Notes: generated by a model not told the origin, from the letters alone. Positions 1-10,233 are shown, counted from the stretch's first letter. The stretch: 10,259 nt of DNA from a bacterium (GCA_050125095.1 JASFEA010000115.1:1-10259), one strand, 5' to 3'. Program-made: numbers and translations.

Positions 1-968
1 GGATTAGCGTCGCGGGAGCTGTGGTAATCGGCGTTGGCAAGGATCTCATCCACCTCGGCCTGGCTGAGCCCGAGGGTCTCCGCGAGTGTCAAGAACTGGT
101 TGGAGCTCGATGTGTCCATGGGCGTCGGCGATCCCTGCACGTCGCTGGAGCCCCTCCTATCGACCTCGTCACCGGTGGTCATGATGCCCGGGACGCAGCC
201 CGTGCCGATGCAGTTGGTTCTTCCGGAGCAGTATTCGTAAACCATACACGCGGGAATCGTCGTGTCATAAGGAGTAAGGAAGCTGTGGTCATGGCCGCAG
301 ACCTCGACGTTTCCCCTGACATCAACGCCCTTGTCGCAGAAGAGGGCCGCGCGCGCATTGACGTTGATCGGATATCTTATTGCCTCGACGAGTATGTTTC
401 TTTCGGCATTGCCCCTCGTCCCGGCGAGCGTGATCACCTCTACCGGAGATCCCGTGGCGAAGTTCTCCGGAGGGAACTTGGAGGCGTCGTAAAACACGAT
501 CTCACCGCTCTCCCTCACGCCGTCGTCATCGAGGTCCTTCCACTTGTGCTCGATCGTTAGCGCCATGTCCAGGTCGGAATCCGAGCTGTACTCAAGCCAG
601 TCGGACTCCGGCTGAATGGTCACCGTATGGAACTCAGTCCCGCCCGGAGTGGGCTCCGACCCGGGCGTCGCAAGGAAGACTCTGACCTTCCAGTTGGGAT
701 CGATGGGCCTCGACGTGTCGGCAATCGCCGCGTTGATGCTGGAGCCGTTCACGTTCATGGTGGTCGGCCATGGAAGCGACAGCCTGTAGAGCGCCTCTTC
801 CACTCCTGCCTCGGCCACGTAGAGCGCCTGCACATCCTGCCTCTGGTTCCTGGAGATGTCTATGTCCGTCCTCGTCAATATGGCCATCCCGGAGCCCAGG
901 ACAAAGAGCGCCACCACAATGAGGATTGCGAACACCAGCGCCGCGCCATTCTCGTTCATACTGACCAT
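1..968 (-). CDS. pilX: PilX/GspK-like type IV minor pilin (PilX N-terminal domain); 3' end runs off the window (at least 322 aa)
   Basis: Manually translated; not in the ORF track. ATG at 968 follows SD-like GAGGTGAG overlapping the upstream stop, and the frame is open to position 1. Sequence MVSMNENG|AALVFAILIVVALFVLGSGMAILTRTDIDISRNQRQDVQALYVAEAGVEEALYRL shows a prepilin Gly cleavage site, no Glu+5 (typical of PilX/GspK) and the PilX_N-type ALYxAEAG motif. Fourth gene of a fimU-pilV-pilW series. Confidence 0.88.
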   Translation of the reverse strand, partial: MVSMNENGAALVFAILIVVALFVLGSGMAILTRTDIDISRNQRQDVQALYVAEAGVEEALYRLSLPWPTTMNVNGSSINAAIADTSRPIDPNWKVRVFLATPGSEPTPGGTEFHTVTIQPESDWLEYSSDSDLDMALTIEHKWKDLDDDGVRESGEIVFYDASKFPPENFATGSPVEVITLAGTRGNAERNILVEAIRYPINVNARAALFCDKGVDVRGNVEVCGHDHSFLTPYDTTIPACMVYEYCSGRTNCIGTGCVPGIMTTGDEVDRRGSSDVQGSPTPMDTSSSNQFLTLAETLGLSQAEVDEILANADYHSSRDAN

Positions 969-979
969 GTCAACTCACC

Positions 980-3919
980 TCAGTCTCTGAAGAACACGAC
1001 AACCTTGCCCTGGCTCAAGGAAGTCCTCGTGCCAACGGCTATATCCTGTTTCCAGTCTTTATTGAAATCATCGATGGTGAGGGTGATCACCTCTCCCACG
1101 TTGGGACTCGTCCACTCATTGCCGGATGAGGGCATGTACCCATAGCACTGGAAGACCTTGAGGGTCCCGGAGAAATCGGAGACTGTCCTCACGCCCACAG
1201 CTATGTCCGGATAGACATCTCTGTCGAAGTGGTCGACGCCGATACAGAGCACGTCGCCATTGATGTAGACCGTATCGGAGGGCTCATAGTATCCGAAGTA
1301 GTTGAGCTCTCCAAAGGTGCCGTCGCTGTTGTTGTGCCAGACCTCTACCATGCCCATCCCGGAGCCGGTTGATGTTCCGACTATAATGTCTAGATCGTCA
1401 TCCGAGTCCTCGCGCATGTCCGCGAGCACCAGGTCGTTTATCTCGCCGTACGTCTCTATGGTCGAGTGATACACGAACTTGCCGTTGGGGGCGCCGGCGT
1501 CCCTGAATATCTCAATGGCTCCCCAGCCCGCTCCCAGAGTCGTACCTGCCACAAAGTCCGGGGCCGGGCTGCCGACGAGCGTCCCCATGTCGACCGAGCG
1601 CACCTCGCCCAGGACATGCACTCCGGCCATGTCGTATACGTCGGACGCATCGCGGGTGAAGTTGCCTGCGCCGTCGCCGAACCATACTTCGGCTTTACCG
1701 TTGCCGCCCAGGAGCCTGGTCCCGATCACCGCGTCCAGCACACCGTCCGAATCGAGAAACGCAAGCTCGGCGTCCAGGATGTCACCCATGCCGCTAGATA
1801 TGAAGAAACTGTTGGGGAAGTCCGGGAGCTCGCCCTTGCTGCCGCCGCCCTGGGTGATCCATACAAGCGTCTTCCCCGTTGCCGAGGTCAGGCCCGAGAT
1901 AACGTCCTGGGTACCGTCATTGTTCAGGTCGCCGTGCGCGACCGAGAAAATGTCCTCCGCGGGAGTCCGGCTGTAGCTCGGGCTCTGGTCGAATATGCCC
2001 GAATTGGGCGTACTCGAGTTCTTCCACTTGTTGAACCAGATATTGAGATTGCTGACTCCCGTCGCGTATTTGGTACCGAGGATAATCTCTTTGTCGTTCT
2101 TATTGTCCTCGTTAAGATCGGCGGACGTAATGGACAGAGCGCGCTGCGTTTCGCCCAGTGTGATCACCGTGAAGCTCAGCTCCGACTCCAGAATATCGCC
2201 GAAGTTGACGATTGTGGTCGAGTCGGAACCCACGTGTACATTGGTCACATTGTTGATTGTAGTGGAAACGTAACCGCCGAGGTCCTCCTCCGTGACCGTA
2301 TAGGTGCCGGGAGAGACCGTGAAGGAATAAACCCCTTCCGCGTCCGTGAGGGTCGTGTCGCCCGTATTGAGACTCATCGTCACGCTGGCGATGCCCTCTT
2401 CGCCGCTGGTCAGAAGGCCGTCTTCATTCTCATCCAGATACACCGTGCCCGTGATGGTCCCGGTCTCATCCGCCGGCAGAAGACCGAACGCCACCATAAC
2501 CGTATCGCCTTCGTACTCGAGAGTACGGTCGACCGTGCTCGGGCCAACGGCGGCGTATCCTTCGGGCACATCCATGGTTATGGAGTATGTATTTACCGGC
2601 ACCAGCATCGAGAACATACCCGTGCTGGAAGTCGTATCGCGGTCGCCGGTGTTTAGGTATATTTCCACGTACGGCACGCCGAATCCTGTAGGTACGGGCG
2701 GATCGCCTTCTTCATAAAGGTCAACCCTGCCGATAATGGTGCCGTAACCGCCCATTGCGCGGTCGCCGAAGTTCGCCGTCACCGTTGATCCCTTTACGGC
2801 GTTCACAACAACCGCGTTCGGCGTTGTTGACGTATAACCGGTGGGATCGGTTTCGGTCACGGTATACGTTCCCGGGTCCACGCGGAAGCCGTAATAACCT
2901 CCGGCACCTGTCGTTCTCTTCATGCCATTGTTGAGCATAAGTAGCGCGCCGGACACGCCGGGCTCCCCGGTACCCTGAACGCCGTCGCCATTGAGATCGT
3001 CGAACACGACTCCGGTGATGATTGCCGAGCGGGAAGGCTCGTTCCTGACGTCGACTTCGGAGGCTATTATGGTCTCGCGGTACCCGTCATTGGCGTCATG
3101 ACGAATGTCCTGCGCCCGGGCCGTGCCTATCGCCGTGACGCCGACCTTCGTAATCCTGGGCAAATTCGTAGAGCTGACGGGGGTAAGCGACAAAATCTCC
3201 GACTGGCTGAGTTCCCCGTCGTTGTCGGAGTCGCCCCACAGTCGATCGGCCGTTGACCTGTCATCATCATGGTCGTACCAGTAAGTGAACAGCGGAGGCG
3301 GATAGTCACCGTCCGGGTAGGGCTCGGGGCCTCTGATCAGCGCAACCGGCCTGTTGGTCCCGCCGTTGGTTGACCCGTCATAGCCGTATACCTGCTTGAC
3401 CAGGAGGTAGTCGTACGGATTCCGTGTGCCCTCCATGTCATCATCGTACATATCCGAGGCGCTCACATAGCCGTCATTGTCGGAGTCCAGGGTGTACCTG
3501 ATAGTCTCGGCTCCGGTGTCATAGGTGCGCGTTGGGGTATAAAGCGCGGTACCCCCGGCCGGCACAGCCGAAGGGCTTGCGGAAGCGTCCATCGCCGCCG
3601 GGTAGCCCGGAGCGCTGCCGTCGTCCACCGCTGGTTCCACGTTGGCGTTGAAAATAATGTCATACGGAGCGGCATGCACTATGCCCTGCTGACCGTCTCC
3701 GTAGTCGATTTCGTAGCCGAGGGACCTTATGTCCTTGATGGGGAAGTCCACCGCCACGCGGGCGTTCTGCTGCGCCTCGGAATCTAGGTCGGCGAGCCTC
3801 GCCGTGCGACTCCCGCCCATGAGTATCTGCATAAGCGGAACGGCCAGAAGCGCCAGAATTGCGACGACTACAAGAGTCTCGATTACTGTAAACCCCTTCT
3901 CTCTGTTCTTTCCACGCAC
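980..3919 (-). CDS. Giant PilW-like minor pilin fused to 3 SdrD-B/Cna-B-like domains and a C-terminal FG-GAP/VCBS-repeat beta-propeller (979 aa)
   Basis: Class III signal REKG|FTVIETLVVVAIL, followed by PilW-type QQNARVAVD..KDIRSLGY. About aa 298-575 are three repeats of the form ITG.V..D.N.DG....GE.G...YTVTE..P.GY...NFGD. About aa 580-979 contain seven repeats resembling D(L/F)N.DG..D(I/V)..G. GTG start with AAGGGGA upstream. Confidence 0.9.
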   Translation of the reverse strand: MRGKNREKGFTVIETLVVVAILALLAVPLMQILMGGSRTARLADLDSEAQQNARVAVDFPIKDIRSLGYEIDYGDGQQGIVHAAPYDIIFNANVEPAVDDGSAPGYPAAMDASASPSAVPAGGTALYTPTRTYDTGAETIRYTLDSDNDGYVSASDMYDDDMEGTRNPYDYLLVKQVYGYDGSTNGGTNRPVALIRGPEPYPDGDYPPPLFTYWYDHDDDRSTADRLWGDSDNDGELSQSEILSLTPVSSTNLPRITKVGVTAIGTARAQDIRHDANDGYRETIIASEVDVRNEPSRSAIITGVVFDDLNGDGVQGTGEPGVSGALLMLNNGMKRTTGAGGYYGFRVDPGTYTVTETDPTGYTSTTPNAVVVNAVKGSTVTANFGDRAMGGYGTIIGRVDLYEEGDPPVPTGFGVPYVEIYLNTGDRDTTSSTGMFSMLVPVNTYSITMDVPEGYAAVGPSTVDRTLEYEGDTVMVAFGLLPADETGTITGTVYLDENEDGLLTSGEEGIASVTMSLNTGDTTLTDAEGVYSFTVSPGTYTVTEEDLGGYVSTTINNVTNVHVGSDSTTIVNFGDILESELSFTVITLGETQRALSITSADLNEDNKNDKEIILGTKYATGVSNLNIWFNKWKNSSTPNSGIFDQSPSYSRTPAEDIFSVAHGDLNNDGTQDVISGLTSATGKTLVWITQGGGSKGELPDFPNSFFISSGMGDILDAELAFLDSDGVLDAVIGTRLLGGNGKAEVWFGDGAGNFTRDASDVYDMAGVHVLGEVRSVDMGTLVGSPAPDFVAGTTLGAGWGAIEIFRDAGAPNGKFVYHSTIETYGEINDLVLADMREDSDDDLDIIVGTSTGSGMGMVEVWHNNSDGTFGELNYFGYYEPSDTVYINGDVLCIGVDHFDRDVYPDIAVGVRTVSDFSGTLKVFQCYGYMPSSGNEWTSPNVGEVITLTIDDFNKDWKQDIAVGTRTSLSQGKVVVFFRD
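983..2150 (-). repeat. Seven FG-GAP/VCBS-like repeats (probable 7-bladed beta-propeller)
   Basis: SADLNEDNKNDKEIILG, HGDLNNDGTQDVISG, AFLDSDGVLDAVIG, MGTLVGSPAPDFVAG, LADMREDSDDDLDIIVG, VDHFDRDVYPDIAVG and IDDFNKDWKQDIAVG recur at roughly 55-65 aa intervals. Confidence 0.8.
2195..3028 (-). repeat. Three tandem ~90-aa SdrD-B/Cna-B-like Ig repeats (about 2762-3028, 2480-2746, 2195-2465)
   Basis: Repeat 1 IITGVVFDDLNGDGVQGTGEPG...ANFGD; repeat 2 TIIGRVDLYEEGDPP...VAFGL (Ca-type loop degenerate); repeat 3 TITGTVYLDENEDGLLTSGEEG...VNFGD. Confidence 0.82.
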
Positions 3920-3937
3920 CTTAGATCATCCCCTTCT

Positions 3938-4321
3938 TCAGTCTCGCCTGAAACTAGCCAGGGTTACGGACCTAGTCTTGTCGCCGTGAGGATATGTCAC
4001 GGTCACCTCTATAGTTTTCAAGTCATTGGCCGGTGTATTGTCCGTTACAACCCACTGCCTGTTGAAGCTGCTTCGAATGGGATTGTCGGGGTCGTTGTGT
4101 GTGCCCGCCGTGAGGTCGGCGTGTGTGCCGTCCAGCTCAAGGAGGTCTTCCATTTTCTCCTGGGCGAAATCCGCCGCCGTTGTATGCATGCGGCTCTCGT
4201 TGAGACTGGCCATGCTTACAGGGAAAAGATTGGCAAGCCCAAGGAACGCGAAGCTTATGACCACGCATACGATCAGGAGTTCAACAAGCGTTATGCCTTT
4301 TTCATTCACGACCGACTTCAT
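3938..4321 (-). CDS. pilV: PilV-like type IV minor pilin (127 aa)
   Basis: NEKG|ITLVELLIVCVVI prepilin motif; AADFAQEKMEDL helix; C-terminal FNRQWVVTD...LKTIEVTVTY typical of PilV/GspI-like pilins; GGAGG RBS. Confidence 0.85.
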   Translation of the reverse strand: MKSVVNEKGITLVELLIVCVVISFAFLGLANLFPVSMASLNESRMHTTAADFAQEKMEDLLELDGTHADLTAGTHNDPDNPIRSSFNRQWVVTDNTPANDLKTIEVTVTYPHGDKTRSVTLASFRRD

Positions 4322-4357
4322 TGCTGATTGCCTCCATTGGGACGCAGAGACTTCGAT

Positions 4358-4882
4358 TTATCTATCACCGCCGCCTTCTTCGTAAGCAAATACCTCCGAG
4401 ATGTACACGAGACCCGTCGGCGCGCTCACATCCACACGCAACGCGTGACCGCTGCAGGCCAGCAGGACCAGTGACTGGGTCTCGCTCGCGGCCCCGCTCC
4501 CGTTGAACGTGATCTTGCTGTTCGTGAAACCGATGTCTGTGAAGGACACGTTATTGGGCAACTCATAGGGGCCGATCATGACTTCGCCGGCGTCGTATGT
4601 TGAATCACCGTCGGCGTCCTCATACGCCTGGAATGTTCCGGCGTCTTCATCGAACTCCACTATGACCGGCTTCGACGATGCGACCGCTCTTGATCTTGCC
4701 AGCTTCATCGTCGAGGATACCTCGCGGGTCGCGTTCATGAGCTTGGCGGTCTTCCTGCTCTTGTTGAAGGCTGGGAGCGAAAACGCCAGAATCACTGTGA
4801 ATATGGCGGCCACCACGAGGAGCTCAATCATCGAGAATCCTCGCTCACTTCTAAGACCCAGTTCCCCTGTCTTGTCCCTCAT
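4358..4882 (-). CDS. FimT/FimU/GspH-like minor pilin (174 aa from ATG 4882)
   Basis: SERG|FSMIELLVVAAIF prepilin motif; ATREVSSTMKLARSRAV and ITFNGSG GspH/FimT-type motifs. ATG 4882 is preferred over GTG 4891 because GAGGTGG lies 5 nt upstream of it. Confidence 0.87.
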   Translation of the reverse strand: MRDKTGELGLRSERGFSMIELLVVAAIFTVILAFSLPAFNKSRKTAKLMNATREVSSTMKLARSRAVASSKPVIVEFDEDAGTFQAYEDADGDSTYDAGEVMIGPYELPNNVSFTDIGFTNSKITFNGSGAASETQSLVLLACSGHALRVDVSAPTGLVYISEVFAYEEGGGDR

Positions 4883-4938
4883 TTCTACCACCTCTCGTCG
4901 GACAGATTATAGAATGCCATTAACTCGCCCCTTTACAC

Positions 4939-4955
4939 TGCAGATACCGTGCCCA
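4939..4955 (-). promoter_or_regulatory. Putative sigma54 (RpoN) -24/-12 promoter of the minor-pilin operon
   Basis: Minus strand reads TGGGCACGGTATCTGCA against consensus YTGGCACGNNNNTTGCW, with exact GG-N10-GC spacing. Predicted +1 near 4928, about 46 nt before ATG 4882. Confidence 0.7.
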
Positions 4956-5151
4956 TCGGGGAGTCAAACGTGGGTGCTATGACCTGTAAGAGAAGGCCGG
5001 GATCGGCCAGGAATAACGCGGATCCCGTCTCTTTCATCCAACTTCGTTTCAGATAATCCCTTAATGCCAGATCCGGCAAAGACAGCGGCATTTTGATAAG
5101 ACCTGTTAAAATTCGACCAGTGAATCCAGCAATTTCATATGCTTAAGAAAG

Positions 5152-5183
5152 TGCAATCTGCGAATGCCACATTGCAATATGCG
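5152..5183. promoter_or_regulatory. Direct repeat TGCAAT(C/A)TGCG x2 with 21-bp spacing, overlapping imperfect palindrome CACATTG/CAATATG; candidate regulator site
   Basis: Copies at 5152-5162 and 5173-5183; palindrome at 5168-5181; lies in an AT-richer divergent intergenic region. Confidence 0.4.
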
Positions 5184-5203
5184 GTCAAAGGGGGGCGACC
5201 GTG

Positions 5204-5233
5204 TTGAAACCCGCTTACGGGATATGGTATAAT
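5204..5233 (+). promoter_or_regulatory. Sigma70-type promoter with extended -10
   Basis: TTGAAA (5204-5209), 18-bp spacer, TGnTATAAT (TATAAT at 5228-5233), then RBS GGGAGGAGGTG and GTG at 5259. Confidence 0.7.
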
Positions 5234-5258
5234 TTAAACAGGGAGGAGGTGATAGTAC

Positions 5259-5642
5259 GTGACCAGAGTCCTGGCGGCGGGAATGGCCATTCTCCTGATT
5301 GTGGCATTCCTGCCCGTATACGCGCTCGCACAGGGAACCTCTTCATCGACGGAGCGTACCGAGTACGTGGCCGGAGATACGGAAGAGGAAGTAGTTGGCG
5401 GCCTGAGGCTTGCCAAGGGCAAGCATGGCAGGAAAATGTGGAGAGCGACCCGCTGGGTCGACCAGCTGTCCGGCGACAAGGCCAAGGTATTCGACTCATA
5501 CGGCATGCCGTCCAGCAGGTATCGCGAAGAAACCCTGGGCCGCGTTGAAGAAACCTGGACCTATCTCGAGCAGGGAATGGAGATAACCTTCCAGGGAGAT
5601 TCCATAATCAGGACCAAGAAGATAGCTCCAGCGACGCGCTAA
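5259..5642 (+). CDS. Secreted hypothetical protein (127 aa); C-terminal half resembles a SmpA/OmlA(BamE)/BLIP-like alpha-beta module
   Basis: Strong RBS and promoter; Sec signal MTRVLAAGMAILLIVAFLPVYALA|Q; pattern V..SYGMPS....ETWTY....ITFQGDSI. Confidence 0.72.
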   Translation: MTRVLAAGMAILLIVAFLPVYALAQGTSSSTERTEYVAGDTEEEVVGGLRLAKGKHGRKMWRATRWVDQLSGDKAKVFDSYGMPSSRYREETLGRVEETWTYLEQGMEITFQGDSIIRTKKIAPATR

Positions 5643-5696
5643 GCAACAAGGTCTCGCTCGTCCTCCATTGCTTGCCGCACAGGTCCCGGTCCGGGC

Positions 5697-5996
5697 TCAG
5701 CCCTGGAGCTTTTCTTTAACCGCCCGCTTCTTGCTCTCGATGGTCAGTTCCTTGTCGCGCCTTTCATCAATCGAAAGCGACGTAAGCACCCTTGCGGCCC
5801 CGCCTTCGAAGGCGGACTCGTGGACCTTCTTCATAAGGGCGAGTATGCTGTCCACGTCACCCTCCACTATGGTCGTCATGGCGGTGAGCTCATACTTGAG
5901 CCCGCTCTCGGCGACGATCCTGACCGCGCCGGCAACGTACTTGCTGATGCTGGCGCCGGTTCCGAACGGCAATACGGTCAGCTGGGCGACAGCCAT
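5697..5996 (-). CDS. MTH1187/YkoF-like (DUF77) thiamine-binding family protein (99 aa)
   Basis: MAVAQLTVLPFGTGASISKYVA...SGLKYELTAMTTIVEG...RVLTSLSIDERRDK matches the family pattern; AAGGAGG RBS; 25 nt downstream of the nitroreductase. Confidence 0.9.
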   Translation of the reverse strand: MAVAQLTVLPFGTGASISKYVAGAVRIVAESGLKYELTAMTTIVEGDVDSILALMKKVHESAFEGGAARVLTSLSIDERRDKELTIESKKRAVKEKLQG

Positions 5997-6021
5997 ATCG
6001 GGCCTCCTTGGCGTTTGCCTC

Positions 6022-6516
6022 TCAGTACTTCTCCCAGTGCAGTACGTCCGAGAGGTCTCGTTTCTCTTTTGCAGCCGGCTGCTCCGCCGGGTATCCGAGC
6101 GAGATCAGGCCGACCAGATTGTATCCTTCCGGCACACCGAGCATCTTCCGTACGGGTTCGCCGTAATCCTTTCCATAGCCGGCGACCCAGCATGTCCCCA
6201 GCCCGAAGGCATGGGCGGCCACCAGGATATTCTCAATAGCGGCTGAGCCGTCCTCCAGATAGTGCTTTACGGCCTTGGCATAAACGGCGACGCATACGCC
6301 GGACTGCGCGATGAATTTTCCCCAGTCCGTGAGCTCCGCGATACTCCGGCGCGTGCCGGCATCCGTTATGACGATAAATTCCCATGGCTGGATGTTGTTG
6401 GCGGTGGGCGCCAGCCTTGCCGTGTCTATGATTTCCTCGATTATCTCTTTGGGAACGGGCTTGTCTTCATAAACCCGCACGCTCCGCCGCCCCTTCAGGG
6501 CCTCAATGGCATCCAT
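6022..6516 (-). CDS. Nitroreductase family protein (164 aa, FMN-dependent)
   Basis: RRSVRVY, ARLAPTANNIQPWEF, DGSAAIENILVAAHAFGLGTCWV and ISLGYP motifs; GGGAGGTG RBS. Confidence 0.95.
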   Translation of the reverse strand: MDAIEALKGRRSVRVYEDKPVPKEIIEEIIDTARLAPTANNIQPWEFIVITDAGTRRSIAELTDWGKFIAQSGVCVAVYAKAVKHYLEDGSAAIENILVAAHAFGLGTCWVAGYGKDYGEPVRKMLGVPEGYNLVGLISLGYPAEQPAAKEKRDLSDVLHWEKY

Positions 6517-6753: not shown

Positions 6754-8160
6754 TTAACGGTAGAGCGCCTTGATCCCGCCCCAGGTGGAACTCGACACGC
6801 TGCTCTGCGGGTCATTGGGCTCGTGAGGACTGAACGGCACTCCATAGTCGAACTCGGACGGCAGCGTCCAGTAATCGTCGCAGTCCGGATGGCGCACCAT
6901 CGACTCGTCGCGCCCGCCCTCCGACGCATACGAGTGGAAGTCCGCGAGCCCGCCCCCGGCGTCAAGCAGGCTTATGTCATCCCCGGAGTTGGCGAGACCC
7001 AGGCTTCCTGTCGAAGCCGTATAGACCTTGCCCGCGAAGCCCGTCGGCGTTCCGCCCCCGAACACGGTGACGAACTCCCCCGGGCTGACGATGACGCCTC
7101 CTTCGAATTCATGGCGCACCTTGAGATCGTCGCGCAGCACCCAGCCGGATATGTCCACGGGCGCGGCCCCGCAGTTGAGGATCTCGATGAACTCGTCATC
7201 GGAGGCGTCGCGCTCGCCGTCACGGTTCGCGTCGCCTTCGATATCCGGTGGGGGGTCGGCCAAAATCTCATTGATCTTAATGAGCAGCGAGCACTGCCTG
7301 ACGCGGTAACCCAGCCAGGGAGAGCGCGAGATGGCGCCCGTCCCGTCCTCCAGCGAGACCCGGTAATGAACCGTATCACCCACGGCGCAGGGGAGTATCG
7401 TGAACCCCCACGTGCCCAGGTCGCCCGCTCCGGAGAGCAGCGACATCGGGAGCTCTTCGCCGTCCTCAAGGTTGATATCAAAAGCGAGCAGCGCCTGGCC
7501 GATGAAGTCGGCATCCCCTGCCGCGACCGCGATGAGGACGCTGTCGCCCCCGGCCGGATAAACCGGGAAGCGAGTCATCTCCAGTATGTGCGGCGCGGGC
7601 GAGGACGCATTCGAAGCGCATGGGGTGGGATCGGCTCCCGCTCCCCCCTTGTCCGTGAAGTGGTCGAACAGGACCCAATCGGCGGCACCATCGGGGAGCC
7701 GCCCGATGGAGACGTCGGACCCTACCTCGGAAGACGTGTATTCAACCGAGTCGATTACGACCGTATCGCCGGCGCCCACGCTTACGAGCCACAGCATGTC
7801 GCCCGCGTTGTTCAGGCTCAGCCCAATCGAAGCGGCATCGTTCCCGCTCTGCCAGGCAAGCGCGGAGCTGCCATAGACGCAGGTGAATCCGCCCGGACCA
7901 AGCTCGCCGGCGAACCCGAACACGGGCACACGGGCCTCGCCGTTCAGAAGATAGAGGCCGTCTAACTGAATCGGGGCGGCCCCCGCATTCATGATCTCAA
8001 CCCACTCATCATCCCGCGAATCCGGCTCAAAGTCGCCGTCCCAGTCGCTGCCTGGCCCCGGCATAAACTCATTGATCACGGGCCCCGACAGCACCGGGCC
8101 CGCATGAAGCGCGGCTATCGATACAAGACAAACTGAGAAAATCCACAGAGCTCTCCACAT
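6754..8160 (-). CDS. Secreted protein with two lamin-tail domains (LTD), a central probable Ig-like domain and a C-terminal TWGGIKALYR tail (468 aa from ATG 8160)
   Basis: Signal peptide MWRALWIFSVCLVSIAALHA with GGGAGG RBS. LTD motifs PVINEFMP...DEWVEIMN...LNNAGD..L and IKINEILAD...DEFIEILN...LANSGDDISL. The ORF-track start at 8265 is probably too long. Confidence 0.87.
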   Translation of the reverse strand: MWRALWIFSVCLVSIAALHAGPVLSGPVINEFMPGPGSDWDGDFEPDSRDDEWVEIMNAGAAPIQLDGLYLLNGEARVPVFGFAGELGPGGFTCVYGSSALAWQSGNDAASIGLSLNNAGDMLWLVSVGAGDTVVIDSVEYTSSEVGSDVSIGRLPDGAADWVLFDHFTDKGGAGADPTPCASNASSPAPHILEMTRFPVYPAGGDSVLIAVAAGDADFIGQALLAFDINLEDGEELPMSLLSGAGDLGTWGFTILPCAVGDTVHYRVSLEDGTGAISRSPWLGYRVRQCSLLIKINEILADPPPDIEGDANRDGERDASDDEFIEILNCGAAPVDISGWVLRDDLKVRHEFEGGVIVSPGEFVTVFGGGTPTGFAGKVYTASTGSLGLANSGDDISLLDAGGGLADFHSYASEGGRDESMVRHPDCDDYWTLPSEFDYGVPFSPHEPNDPQSSVSSSTWGGIKALYR

Positions 8161-8186
8161 CCTCCACAACCTCCCATCATTAGGTT

Positions 8187-8203
8187 CGCATTTGAAGTGC
8201 CGG
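8187..8203 (-). promoter_or_regulatory. Putative sigma54 -24/-12 promoter of the LTD gene
   Basis: Minus strand CCGGCACTTCAAATGCG has GG-N10-GC spacing with a GGCAC core; predicted +1 near 8176, immediately before the RBS. Confidence 0.5.
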
Positions 8204-8301
8204 TGCCGCCGCTGCCGCAGAGCCCTGTCCGATTCCACCCCCTTTCCCAGGGCAGCACCAAGCATATGGCCGGGTGGAAGACGCGGTCAAGAATCACCCC
8301 C

Positions 8302-8355
8302 TGGGGTCAGGTCTCAAAATGCACAACCTCTTGGGGTCAGGTCTTAAGTTGCACA
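8302..8355. repeat. Two 24-bp direct repeats TGGGGTCAGGTCTyAArwTGCACA with a 30-bp period
   Basis: 8302-8325 TGGGGTCAGGTCTCAAAATGCACA and 8332-8355 TGGGGTCAGGTCTTAAGTTGCACA (21/24 identical); partial third copy GGGTCAAAATG near 8367-8377. Confidence 0.85.
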
Positions 8356-8380
8356 GCGGCACGCCCGGGTCAAAATGGTG

Positions 8381-8409
8381 TGGAAAACGCCGGGAGCGGC
8401 CGATATATT
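8381..8409 (+). promoter_or_regulatory. Possible sigma70 promoter giving a leaderless transcript of the sulfatase-like gene
   Basis: TGGAAA (8381-8386), 17-bp spacer, TATATT (8404-8409); ATG at 8416 sits at the expected +1; no Shine-Dalgarno. Confidence 0.45.
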
Positions 8410-8415
8410 AGATGT

Positions 8416-10233
8416 ATGAGCGTCATGAAACCCGAAATCCGCAGCCTCCTGGCTGTCGCCGCAGGCATTCTCCTGGCCGTCATCGCCGGGTGCGAACGCC
8501 AGTCCCGGCCGCTCAATGTCGTGATCATCGGCGTAGACACCGTCTGTTCCGACCACCTCAGCTGCTACGGCTATGATCGTGAGACCAGCCCTGAGATCGA
8601 CAATCTCGCAGCCCGGGGCACGCTCTTCGAGAACGCAGTAAGCCAGGCGCCCTGGACCCTTCCGTCCTTTGCGACCATTTTCACCTCCCTCTATCCTGTA
8701 CAGCACGGGGCCTCGGCCCAGAACACCAAGCTGAGAACAGATCATCCCACGCTTGCAATGATGCTCCTGAAGAAGGGGTATTCCACCGCGGGGATCATCA
8801 ACGCGCCTTTCCTCAGGCCCGAATACAAGCTGGACCGGGGCTTTGAGCACTATGACTACAAGCCCCCGTTCGCGGGGAGAATCGCCGGCGGTACTACAGC
8901 GGACGCTCTCGCCTGGATAGACGAACACATAGACGAGCACTTTTTCATTTTCGTTCACTACTTCGATCCCCACGAGCCCTACGCGCCGCCTGAACCATAT
9001 GACACCAAGTTCTGTCCCGACTACAGCGGCGAGCTTTCGGCGCCTTTCAGCCTCAGCTTCTTCCCCAGGGCGCGCGCAACGGATTTCGAGACTATGAAGA
9101 CTGTGTCCGAGGCGGACTGGAACTACATAAGGGCGCTCTATGACGGTGAGATATGTTACGCCGACCAGGCCATAGGAGACCTTATCGCCGGCATCGACGA
9201 AAGGGGTCTCACGGATAACACGCTCATAGTCTTCTTGAGCGACCACGGCGAGGAGTTCTTCGAACACGGCGGATTCGAACACGGCCATACGCTCTACAAC
9301 GAGCTCGTCAAGGTGCCGCTCATCATATCTCTACCCGGGCAGATCCCGGAGAATGCGCGCATAGCTGATCACGTCCGCCTTATCGACGTCGCGCCCACAG
9401 TGCTGGACTTGCTCGGCATTACGCCCCCCGCCCACCTCCAGGGCGCAAGCCTCAAGCCCCTCATAACTGGCAAGGGCGAGGTCATCGCGCCCGAGGGCAG
9501 CCTGCTGCCGCCGGGCATCGGCTATTCGGAATCCCTGCTCTACGGGACTGAGAGAAAATCGATACTCGCCTACCCGTGGAAGTACACATATGAAGTGATG
9601 ACGGGAAACCACATGCTCTTCAACTTAATGGCGGACCCCGACGAAATGGAGGACGTTTCGGCTGCGGATGCGGAGGCGCTGCGGCCCCTGGAGGAGCTTC
9701 TGGCCAGGACGATGTTCGGAATTTCTGAAACCTGGTACATAGAGCTCTGCGGCGACGGCGATGAACATACCTTCGACATCGATGTAGATTCCCGCTCAGG
9801 GCAGCGGACCGGCAGCGTTTACATCTCGCGCGCATTCGATTCGGGCGACCGTATGGTAGACATTGGAGTAGTCGGCCGAGGTGGGGTAGCTTCCGGTGGG
9901 GTGGCGCTGAAGGGCCTCAAGCTGAGCAGCAAGGCCACCATCGCCTTCAAAGTGGAACCTGAGAACACACCGCTCAAAATAGACGCGCGAATTGATGGAA
10001 AGACCGCATTAGAAAGCGTTTATCTCGGCATGGCTCTGGAGAATCCCGCCACGATGCCCTTCGCGGTCAATACACGGCCGGGGGAGAACCTCGAGTCAGG
10101 CGTGCCTGTCGAAAGGCCCGCGGGGCCGTTCATTCTCATATGGAAATCGGGGCGAAGCCTCAGTGATGCAGCTGTCTTCGAGCTCGGCGAATCAATTGAG
10201 AACGAGCTCCGCTCCGTAGGTTACCTTCAATAG
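8416..10233 (+). CDS. Sulfatase-like (alkaline phosphatase superfamily) hydrolase/transferase lipoprotein, about 605 aa
   Basis: Lipobox LAVIAG|C; motifs NVVIIGVDT..SDHL, WTLPSFATIFTSLYP, FVHYFDPHEPY, YDGEICYAD, SDHGEEFFEHG, VRLIDVAPT and terminal LRSVGY. Start at 8416 or 8425 rather than 8197. Confidence 0.9.
   Translation: MSVMKPEIRSLLAVAAGILLAVIAGCERQSRPLNVVIIGVDTVCSDHLSCYGYDRETSPEIDNLAARGTLFENAVSQAPWTLPSFATIFTSLYPVQHGASAQNTKLRTDHPTLAMMLLKKGYSTAGIINAPFLRPEYKLDRGFEHYDYKPPFAGRIAGGTTADALAWIDEHIDEHFFIFVHYFDPHEPYAPPEPYDTKFCPDYSGELSAPFSLSFFPRARATDFETMKTVSEADWNYIRALYDGEICYADQAIGDLIAGIDERGLTDNTLIVFLSDHGEEFFEHGGFEHGHTLYNELVKVPLIISLPGQIPENARIADHVRLIDVAPTVLDLLGITPPAHLQGASLKPLITGKGEVIAPEGSLLPPGIGYSESLLYGTERKSILAYPWKYTYEVMTGNHMLFNLMADPDEMEDVSAADAEALRPLEELLARTMFGISETWYIELCGDGDEHTFDIDVDSRSGQRTGSVYISRAFDSGDRMVDIGVVGRGGVASGGVALKGLKLSSKATIAFKVEPENTPLKIDARIDGKTALESVYLGMALENPATMPFAVNTRPGENLESGVPVERPAGPFILIWKSGRSLSDAAVFELGESIENELRSVGYLQ

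Follow-up and report, generated by a model that had tools for sequence, protein, structure and literature searches.

The tip binding specificity of type IV pili is an active question, for which three solutions are known: the PilY1/PilC proteins plugged into PilX/PilK, the small modular pilins of Gram-positive bacteria and the bulky PilX of cyanobacteria. These are compared here with a giant minor pilin of 979 amino acids (aa), whose gene lies in a contig of 10,259 bases (GCA_050125095.1, JASFEA010000115.1:1-10259; contig C115, referred to below, as a whole, as the window) from a metagenome bin of 3.35 Mb (268 contigs; completeness 91%, contamination 3.45%). PilY1/PilC is described as a large beta-propeller protein with calcium sites and a variable binding part, which is located at the pilus tip and goes ahead of the fibre through the secretin (PMC7541494; bioRxiv 10.64898/2026.09.18.752573); the latter source describes it as preloaded in the secretin channel. 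According to these accounts PilY1 carries a type I signal, and its attachment is non-covalent, through a C-terminal strand augmenting PilK/PilX. Modular pilins, as reported by Raynaud et al. (2021; PMC8179133), comprise more than 1,200 proteins in 264 architectures, with PF13620 among the common grafts and a multi-domain protein of 860 residues as the most extreme case; PilB and PilC of Streptococcus sanguinis (with a vWA and a lectin module, respectively) consist of an N-terminal pilin module with a grafted non-pilin binding module, and their location at the tip is proposed. As for the cyanobacterial PilX and Thermus ComZ, a 2026 paper (PMC13759059) presents them as core minor pilins bearing the bulk of the tip where PilY1 is missing, in genomes with several alternative minor-pilin sets for different pili, and proposes that the beta-solenoid inserted in the cyanobacterial PilX takes over the PilY1 role.

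The gene of the window encodes, in one chain, a pilin module of 295 residues, a stalk of three immunoglobulin (Ig)-like domains and a seven-bladed FG-GAP beta-propeller head, and it lies among four minor-pilin genes. This design is real, conserved and uncharacterised, and it has a plausible role: judging from the sequence, the protein probably belongs to the core minor pilins of the PilW/GspJ class, is modular and has the tip adhesin built into its own chain. Modular pilins are defined by N_methyl or IPR012902 together with one or more domains that are not peculiar to type IV pilus biology, and the giant pilin contains four such domain matches (SdrD_B, CarboxypepD_reg, FG-GAP_3 and FG-GAP). 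With PilB and PilC it shares the general plan and the proposed tip location, and PF13620-type domains are common grafts among modular pilins as a whole; it differs from the described modular pilins in that the carrier is the PilW/GspJ-class member of a diderm's four core minor pilins, that the graft is multi-domain and comprises about 680 residues, and that its 979 aa exceed the 860 residues given as the extreme case (PMC8179133). The likeness to PilY1 concerns the large propeller, the putative calcium sites, the putative tip position and passage through the secretin ahead of the fibre, and the variable binding part, whereas the giant pilin has a class III signal, and its propeller is of the FG-GAP/integrin type and covalently part of a PilW-class pilin. 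With the bulky PilX-class pilins it has in common that a core minor pilin would itself bear the bulk at the tip in a lineage without a detected PilY1, and that the genome has an alternative minor-pilin set. In contrast to the cyanobacterial PilX with its inserted solenoid, the stalk and propeller are attached C-terminally, and to a PilW-class subunit. The principle of modular pilins with grafted adhesion modules, for which the original prediction had named the S. sanguinis proteins, is already published (PMC8179133), so that the advance is incremental rather than categorical and of moderate interest, mainly to pilus specialists. Papers describing an Ig stalk and an FG-GAP propeller on a pilin of the PilW class were not found in our literature search (the architecture may be listed in Dataset S1 of Raynaud et al.), and neither was anything related, by title and abstract, on the pili of Krumholzibacteriota. 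The possibility, foreseen in the original prediction, that the architecture would turn out widespread and already characterised was borne out in its first half, while no characterising paper was found.

Pilin Module

The protein begins with a class III signal, whose leader has nine residues, most of them basic, with Gly9 as the last; Phe+1, Glu+5 and a hydrophobic helix come next. The Pfam model N_methyl matches it with 26.2 bits (cut-off 21.2) and TIGR02532 with 19.4 bits (cut-off 16.3). These matches, the helix modelled by AlphaFold2 (AF2) at residues 12-65, and the prepilin peptidase and assembly machine encoded in the genome are what is expected of a type IV pilin. As to the globular part, the term "PilW-like" used in the original prediction is true for the fold and the gene position, not for the sequence family. 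The PilW Pfam model gave no match at E <= 0.1 in scans of the whole protein and of the separate domains, and the GspJ model TIGR01711 reached 15.8 bits, well below its cut-off of 64.85, in the N-terminal helix only. The fold was recognised in the AF2 model of residues 1-298 alone (41 sequences; predicted local distance difference test (pLDDT) 85.5, predicted template modelling score 0.81). Its best matches among 48,161 representative PDB chains (VIA-align) were TTHA1219 (Z 9.3, with 149 residues aligned at a root-mean-square deviation of 3.5), XcpW (Z 8.3), EpsJ (Z 7.9) and GspJ (Z 7.5), with 133-149 residues aligned in these four; a weaker match, the pilin module of S. sanguinis PilB (Z 5.5), was the fifth, and unrelated folds with Z below 5 came after it. 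Foldseek returned nothing for this module at E <= 0.001, with the same proteins ranked first and a best E of only 4e-3. Tt1219 serves as the structural reference for PilW homologues in the 2026 paper (PMC13759059).

The module thus has the same fold as TTHA1219, XcpW, EpsJ and GspJ over residues ~41-298, and its gene holds the same slot, between a PilV/GspI-like and a PilX/GspK-like gene. It differs from these solved proteins, which have no C-terminal extension, in being about 100 residues larger and in having two DxDxDG loops, at residues 145-156 and 230-241 (window positions 3196-3231 and 3451-3486, minus strand), that are invariant in alignment A2. We know of no such loops in solved GspJ-type proteins. 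They may be calcium sites, to which weak EF-hand matches at residues 144-158 point; the search of PDB sequences with alignment A2 returned only pilin N-termini and, at E > 0.02, very weak EF-hand/dockerin loops.

Stalk and Propeller Head

The full-length AF2 model (46-sequence alignment, mean pLDDT 86.8) consists of the N-terminal helix, a beta-rich domain extending to residue ~290, three beta-sandwiches (residues 299-388, 392-482 and 487-577) and an all-beta domain at residues 583-979, where the pLDDT is mostly above 90. In the whole chain Pfam recognises SdrD_B (76.3 bits, in two stretches), CarboxypepD_reg, FG-GAP_3 and FG-GAP. When the Ig-like domains were scanned one by one, the first and the third exceeded the SdrD_B (PF17210) cut-off of 29.7 bits, while the second, scanned alone, had no SdrD_B match, though it is covered by the alignment of the family profile to the SdrD structure of Staphylococcus aureus (residues 385-566, E 3e-15). 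Of the three SdrD-B repeats predicted originally, all three are present as Ig-like sandwiches in the AF2 model, and two are members of the family by its cut-off. The description of the stalk as an extender of the MSCRAMM (microbial surface component recognising adhesive matrix molecules) type holds for the B-repeat fold only: the LPXTG motif is absent from the sequence and no A-domain family was matched by Pfam, for which reasons the reading of the giant pilin as an MSCRAMM was dropped.

The head is matched by FG-GAP_3 with 55.9 bits in two stretches (cut-off 26.9) and by FG-GAP with 31.4 bits (cut-off 22.1). It contains seven repeats with a common hydrophobic-Gly-Thr anchor, at residues 612, 673, 730, 789, 845, 906 and 960, spaced by 54-61 residues. 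Superposition of residues 580-979 on seven-bladed propellers, including the headpieces of integrins alpha M, alpha 6, alpha IIb and alpha 4, gave Z of 32-34, with about 32 for the integrin headpieces, and integrin alpha-4 was also matched by the family profile (E 4.4e-6). A Foldseek search with the full-length chain of 979 aa was uninformative, as matches to the multi-propeller protein DDB1 dominated it at a TM-score of ~0.2. Domain scans, fold searches and two confident AF2 models have in this way confirmed the sevenfold FG-GAP propeller and the overall anatomy of the original prediction, a single chain in which a pilin and an Ig stalk are followed by an integrin-alpha-like propeller; a failure to predict a propeller fold, which would have spoken against it, did not occur. 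Both likenesses are at the level of building blocks. Compared with the MSCRAMM SdrD, the giant pilin has the SdrD_B fold in its first and third Ig-like domains without the LPXTG anchor or A-domain, and compared with integrin alpha, it has the propeller type without the integrin beta partner and the thigh or calf domain. Descent of the head from the PilY1 propeller was also considered and dropped for lack of a sequence match (PF05567, the PilY1 family, not matched in the giant pilin at E <= 0.1).

Integrity and Conservation of the Gene

The source being a fragmented metagenome bin, the long open reading frame (ORF) might be an artefact, two or more genes joined by misassembly or by a sequencing error, and a fusion by assembly error had been named from the start as a ground for discarding the prediction. 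The ORF at 980..3919 is open for 979 codons from GTG, with no internal stops. The query is covered collinearly over at least 97% of its length by 110 of the best 120 homologues listed (959-1050 aa; identity from 100% down to 34%), and a relative is encoded in 127 of 184 candidate stretches of species-representative genomes. Eighty related loci were kept (below, L numbers denote related loci, G numbers related genomes, G000 being the source genome, and C numbers contigs of the latter), and in 46 of the 80 a single intact ORF reaches the end of the propeller. The gene is broken into two to four ORFs in 4 of the 80 (L056, L057, L060 and L065), which is what the artefact explanation can claim in its favour besides the fragmented bin; L010 was grouped with these four as having a split or truncated giant gene, and in all five loci either a pseudogene or an assembly indel error is possible. 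Independent DNA speaks to the same point: one contig of a sediment metagenome (run X3) spans window positions 1-5200 with 59 substitutions and no gaps, and pieces from run X2 bridge both domain junctions (2467-3246 and 2087-2316), across which AF2 is confident as well. For practical purposes the artefact explanation is refuted.

The carriers of the family are uncultured sediment and wetland bacteria. Two wetland RNA libraries contain contigs on the gene at 1865-2066, 3015-3251, 3576-3784, 1849-2126 and 3359-3591, which hint at transcription; these contigs reach only 12 and 8 of the 30 bins across window positions 1-5200, and DNA carry-over is possible.

Minor-Pilin Cassette and Promoter Motif

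The giant gene is the third of four minor-pilin genes (Table 1) and stands between a PilV-like and a PilX_N gene, i.e., at the pilW position, as had been predicted. In the 46 intact loci the order is GspH-like (H), PilV-like (V), giant, PilX-like (X) in 38, V-giant-X-H in four (L023, L041, L042 and L048, where the GspH-like gene is shifted to the end of the cassette), H-V-giant at contig ends in two, H-V-giant-X-X in one and giant-X in one; the giant gene is thus flanked by the PilV-like and PilX-like genes in 38 + 4 + 1 of the 46 loci, as it is in the window. The two neighbours upstream score below the cut-offs of the more specific models (TIGR01708 gspH, 42.9 bits; TIGR02523 PilV, 25.4 bits, and TIGR01707 GspI, 13.7 bits). 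For the PilX-like gene truncated at the contig end, the full-length orthologue from L008 (430 aa, 89% identical, PilX_N 25.8 bits; orthologues have 420-440 aa) was used as a stand-in in a structure prediction of three chains, together with the pilin module and the PilV-like protein of the window. The interaction score ipSAE was 0.57, against 0.00 for the best of three controls; of 80 solved complexes 58 reach this mark, and of 110 mismatched pairs 2 do so; among those that reach it, only 7 of the 80 solved complexes, along with both mismatches, score 0.60 or less. The runs agreed in at least 76% of contacts, with a partner pLDDT of at least 74. The prediction weakly suggests that the pilin module contacts both neighbours.

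The motif upstream of the cassette is the only match to GGCA[CT]N5[TC]TGC on either strand of the window. The first cassette gene is preceded by such a motif, at a distance of at most 260 nt, in 35 of the 65 loci with enough flank, the background being 61 matches in 1,247,296 nt, or 0.014 expected per 290 nt; the stricter TGGCA[CT]N5TTGC is found in 14 of the 65 loci, with 28 matches in all. It may function as the promoter of the cassette. Its position fits a PilR-type regulon and, together with the pilR gene found immediately before the analogous cassettes of G016 and G017 (see below), suggests PilR/sigma-54 control of minor pilins in these phyla.

Table 1. Features of the 10,259-base window that belong to the giant pilin and its cassette
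Feature	Position	Strand	Remarks
Giant modular minor pilin	980..3919	-	979 aa and stop codon; GTG start
Pilin module, residues 1-295	3035..3919	-	9-residue leader; alpha-1 helix 12-65; PilW/GspJ-class beta domain; two invariant DxDxDG loops
Ig-like domain 1, residues 296-390	2750..3034	-	SdrD_B 49.9 bits; sandwich 299-388; DxNxDG loop at 308
Ig-like domain 2, residues 391-483, divergent	2471..2749	-	sandwich 392-482; only CarboxypepD_reg at E 0.049
Ig-like domain 3, residues 484-580	2180..2470	-	SdrD_B 47.9 bits; CarboxypepD_reg 26.5 bits; DxNxDG loop at 496
Seven-bladed FG-GAP beta-propeller head, residues 581-979	983..2179	-	FG-GAP_3, FG-GAP, AF2, superposition
GspH/FimU-like minor pilin	4358..4891	-	177 aa from GTG, alternative ATG at 4882; Pfam GspH 41.4 bits, N_methyl 28.1 bits
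PilV/GspI-like minor pilin	3938..4321	-	127 aa; N_methyl 22.8 bits; kept beside the giant gene
PilX/GspK-like minor pilin without Glu5, cut by the contig end	3..968	-	322 of ~430 aa; PilX_N 24.8 bits (cut-off 25.5)
Sigma-54-type promoter motif (candidate), GGCAC-N5-CTGC	4940..4953	-	~50 nt upstream of the first cassette gene

Several features of the cassette and of its surroundings were noted besides. Two tandem PilX-like genes are present in L026 (12998-15592), and an additional inverted PilX-like/PilV-like pair in L044 (6071-7748). In the PilX-like protein (alignment A4; L008:12952-14244) Cys224, His228 and Cys241 are invariant, and the last 100 residues contain a Gly-rich repeat, which may be a beta-solenoid like that of the cyanobacterial PilX or ComZ; a search of PDB sequences with alignment A4 gave nothing below E 1. 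The rest of the contig carries genes for a nitroreductase (6022-6516, minus strand), a secreted-looking protein with a Lamin-tail domain (6754-8265, minus strand) and a sulfatase (8197-10233, plus strand); these three form a block that is syntenic in L008. An ORF of 441 aa without a family match overlaps the gene of the Lamin-tail-domain protein on the opposite strand, and no family was matched by the ORFs at 5201-6246.

PilY1 and the Second Minor-Pilin Set

The original prediction called for a search for pilY1 and pilQ in the genome; PilQ is encoded on C10 and a further secretin on C9, and no match to PF05567 was found. The same model was matched in none of the 18 genomes of the same class, the source genome included, and in none of five further genomes carrying the giant pilin, four of which are titled chromosomes. 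Among 13 more distant genomes there was one weak match (G027), and the long frame, when scanned, scored 33.2 bits at a cut-off of 28.1, from which it follows that the search is able to see divergent members; with no match in the 14 named control genomes there is no positive control, and G027 is the only check of sensitivity.

The genome has a second minor-pilin set, of ordinary size, at C70:10697-14164 (L089:3698-7165), which encodes proteins of 189 (GspH-like), 129, 290 and 540 aa, the last with PilX_N and DUF4900; no PilY1-like gene lies next to it. In BLASTP the pilin module is similar to the 290-aa protein at the PilW position of this set in the first 65 residues only (37%, E 5e-9), so the two are not close paralogues. 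Genes of the C70 type were seen in many genomes of the same order. The full pilin module was found in 13 of the 16 genomes of the same order or closer, own included, and not in G006, G007 and G009 (3 of 16), which are 89-99% complete. The giant pilin is consequently dispensable for piliation, and the giant set, given also how common the C70-type gene is, looks like an accessory one that would provide an alternative tip.

Proposed Function and Alternatives

The course of events that we consider probable is as follows. The four genes would be transcribed from the sigma-54-type promoter, and the leader of nine residues would be removed by the prepilin peptidase. By homology to GspH-I-J-K and PilH-I-J-K, the pilin module would pair with its PilV-like and PilX-like neighbours in the priming, or tip, complex of a type IVa pilus, with the GspH-like protein linking this complex to PilA and the machine being supplied by the PilT, PilC, PilA and PilMNOPQ genes of another contig. 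The C-terminal 680 residues, i.e. the stalk of three Ig domains of the calcium-binding type and the seven-bladed propeller, would lead the tip, pass the PilQ secretin first and serve the pilus as its adhesin, filling the role that the separate non-pilin propeller of PilY1/PilC has in proteobacteria; the second, ordinary-sized set would give pili with a different tip. Incorporation into the pilus, surface display and adhesion are what we infer, the last of them from the building blocks (SdrD B repeats and an integrin-type propeller) and from the adhesin-type domains of the swapped heads described below.

As to the machine, both candidates are present in the genome. Contig C10 encodes PilT, PilC, PilS, the sigma-54 activator PilR, a PilA of 143 aa, an ABC transporter, PilM, PilN, PilP and PilQ (and, directly after pilQ, a 932-aa protein with five to six Big_1/Invasin_D3 repeats, L091:14951-17749); contig C9 carries a cluster similar to the type II secretion system (T2SS), with a GspG-type pseudopilin, the ATPase GspE and a secretin; and the prepilin peptidase is encoded on C147 (Peptidase_A24, 71.2 bits). 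The cassette might then serve a T2SS-like pseudopilus or another type 4 filament, with the stalk and propeller working in the periplasm or the secretin vestibule, for example in substrate holding or channel plugging, and no display on a long fibre. This would agree with the facts that the four proteins are equally GspH/I/J/K-like, that GspH is matched by Pfam and XcpW, EpsJ and GspJ are among the best folds, that no H-I-J-K set was seen beside the C9 cluster, and that in L034 (Latescibacterota) the cassette is preceded by a GspF-like gene whose product shares 43% identity with the F protein from the T2SS-like cluster of our genome. However, in two Krumholzibacteriia loci (L043 and L049) a full-length orthologous cassette directly follows pilM-N-O-P-Q, and in two more (L046 and L058) pilQ, at the contig edge, precedes it, the PilQ of these loci being 47-48% identical to that of C10 and 25-28% to the secretin of C9. 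In G016 and G017, of the same class, the order is pilR, H, V, giant, PilX_N, pilM, pilN, pilO (L094:5883-14371 and L093:7650-12572); their giant pilins (994 and 1033 aa), in which N_methyl is combined with three fn3 domains and Big_7, match the pilin base of the window only in the N-terminal helix and are analogous proteins at the same slot, with a different globular pilin part. Besides, the fourth gene matches PilX_N while no GspK model is over its cut-off, and the C70 set could serve the other system. Nor, to our knowledge, is there a role in a pseudopilus for an adhesin-like stalk and head of ~680 residues. We regard service to a pseudopilus or another filament as unlikely, and the type IVa pilus, judging from the gene neighbourhoods, as considerably the better candidate of the two systems.

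Two other explanations accept the pilin signal and differ in what the protein does. The head of a tip pilin might be an enzyme or a sensor instead of an adhesin, for example one acting on polysaccharides or sensing calcium. Enzymes, such as aldos-2-ulose dehydratase (Z 32.3), are among the propellers matched at equal Z, there are many calcium-type loops in the chain, sulfatase genes are present in the window and in the close relative L008, and modular pilins with predicted peptidase modules are listed by Raynaud et al. (PMC8179133). On the other hand, no catalytic family was matched by sequence, the sequence-level relatives of the head are only FG-GAP and integrin alpha repeats, the heads swapped onto the same base consist of adhesin-type Ig domains (Invasin_D3, Big_1), fn3 and Big_7 of G016 and G017 being of the same type, and the sulfatase neighbourhood is not kept beyond close relatives (according to ORF maps, only L008 having been scanned for families). 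We think it quite unlikely. The class III signal and the pilin module might also only export or anchor a surface or periplasmic protein that does not polymerise into the tip, as in archaeal sugar-binding proteins with pilin-like signals. Pilus incorporation is, after all, derived indirectly, and some relatives can dispense with the protein; but what is conserved is a complete globular module of 295 aa of the PilW/GspJ class and not a signal peptide alone, the gene keeps its place inside the four-pilin cassette, and the complex prediction with the neighbours gives this a little additional support, which makes mere export or anchoring very improbable.

Several observations weigh against a tip adhesin of a type IVa pilus. 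The cassette is not beside pilus-machine genes in our genome, L008 and L009, and in L034 it follows the GspF-like gene; the full pilin module was not found in the three same-order genomes mentioned above; the absence of PilY1, relying on one Pfam model, is soft; and a GspI-J-K complex has been solved, so that the pass in the complex prediction may reflect likeness to it. In Myxococcus, the fusion PilW3-sfGFP was non-functional, and its authors suggest that the passage through PilQ may fail (PMC7541494). How a folded head passes the secretin was asked already in the original prediction. The puzzle is softer than stated there, as the channel of the secretin is said to be preloaded with PilY1/PilC, which is a large propeller protein too, and yet, in view of the PilW3-sfGFP result, it is not empty. 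As for dimensions, a propeller about 5 nm across would fit the lumen of a secretin.

Distribution, Other Heads and Significance

The pilin module of 295 aa recurs in other phyla with other C-terminal parts. Proteins of ~790-900 aa in loci titled WOR-3, TA06 and others (L066, L067, L071, L072 and L077) have one SdrD_B followed by ~450 unrecognised residues; Krumholzibacteriia paralogues of 1051-1059 aa (L084-L086) have no recognised domain and ~760 unrecognised residues; and a 1117-aa protein of a Nitrospira metagenome-assembled genome (L087:3406-6759) combines the pilin base with Invasin_D3 and Big_1. Taken jointly, these data lead us to propose, tentatively and with somewhat less than even confidence, that candidate phyla of the FCB group (Eisenbacteria, Krumholzibacteriota, Latescibacterota and Edwardsbacteria, with WOR-3 and TA06 bearing other heads) have a type IVa pilus without PilY1, in which a PilW-class core minor pilin, expressed from a sigma-54 operon, is an exchangeable adhesin chassis: interchangeable stalk-and-head cassettes, ending in an FG-GAP propeller, Invasin/Big_1 domains or heads without a known fold, would be mounted on a base bearing calcium loops. 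If this is true, a cell could alter the binding target of its pili by the choice of the minor-pilin set, and a folded propeller of ~45 kDa tied covalently to PilW would pass PilQ routinely, giving a natural upper bound for the pilin-attached cargo of a secretin.

To the three known solutions of tip binding the giant pilin family would add a fourth, in which a rigid stalk joins the adhesin to a subunit of the PilW class and which occurs in lineages that yielded no PilY1 domain. It would be a natural counter-example to the notion that a bulky tag on PilW blocks function, useful for testing what the PilQ secretin passes. For its uncultured carriers the family would be the first concrete lead to the way in which they attach to particles or partners.

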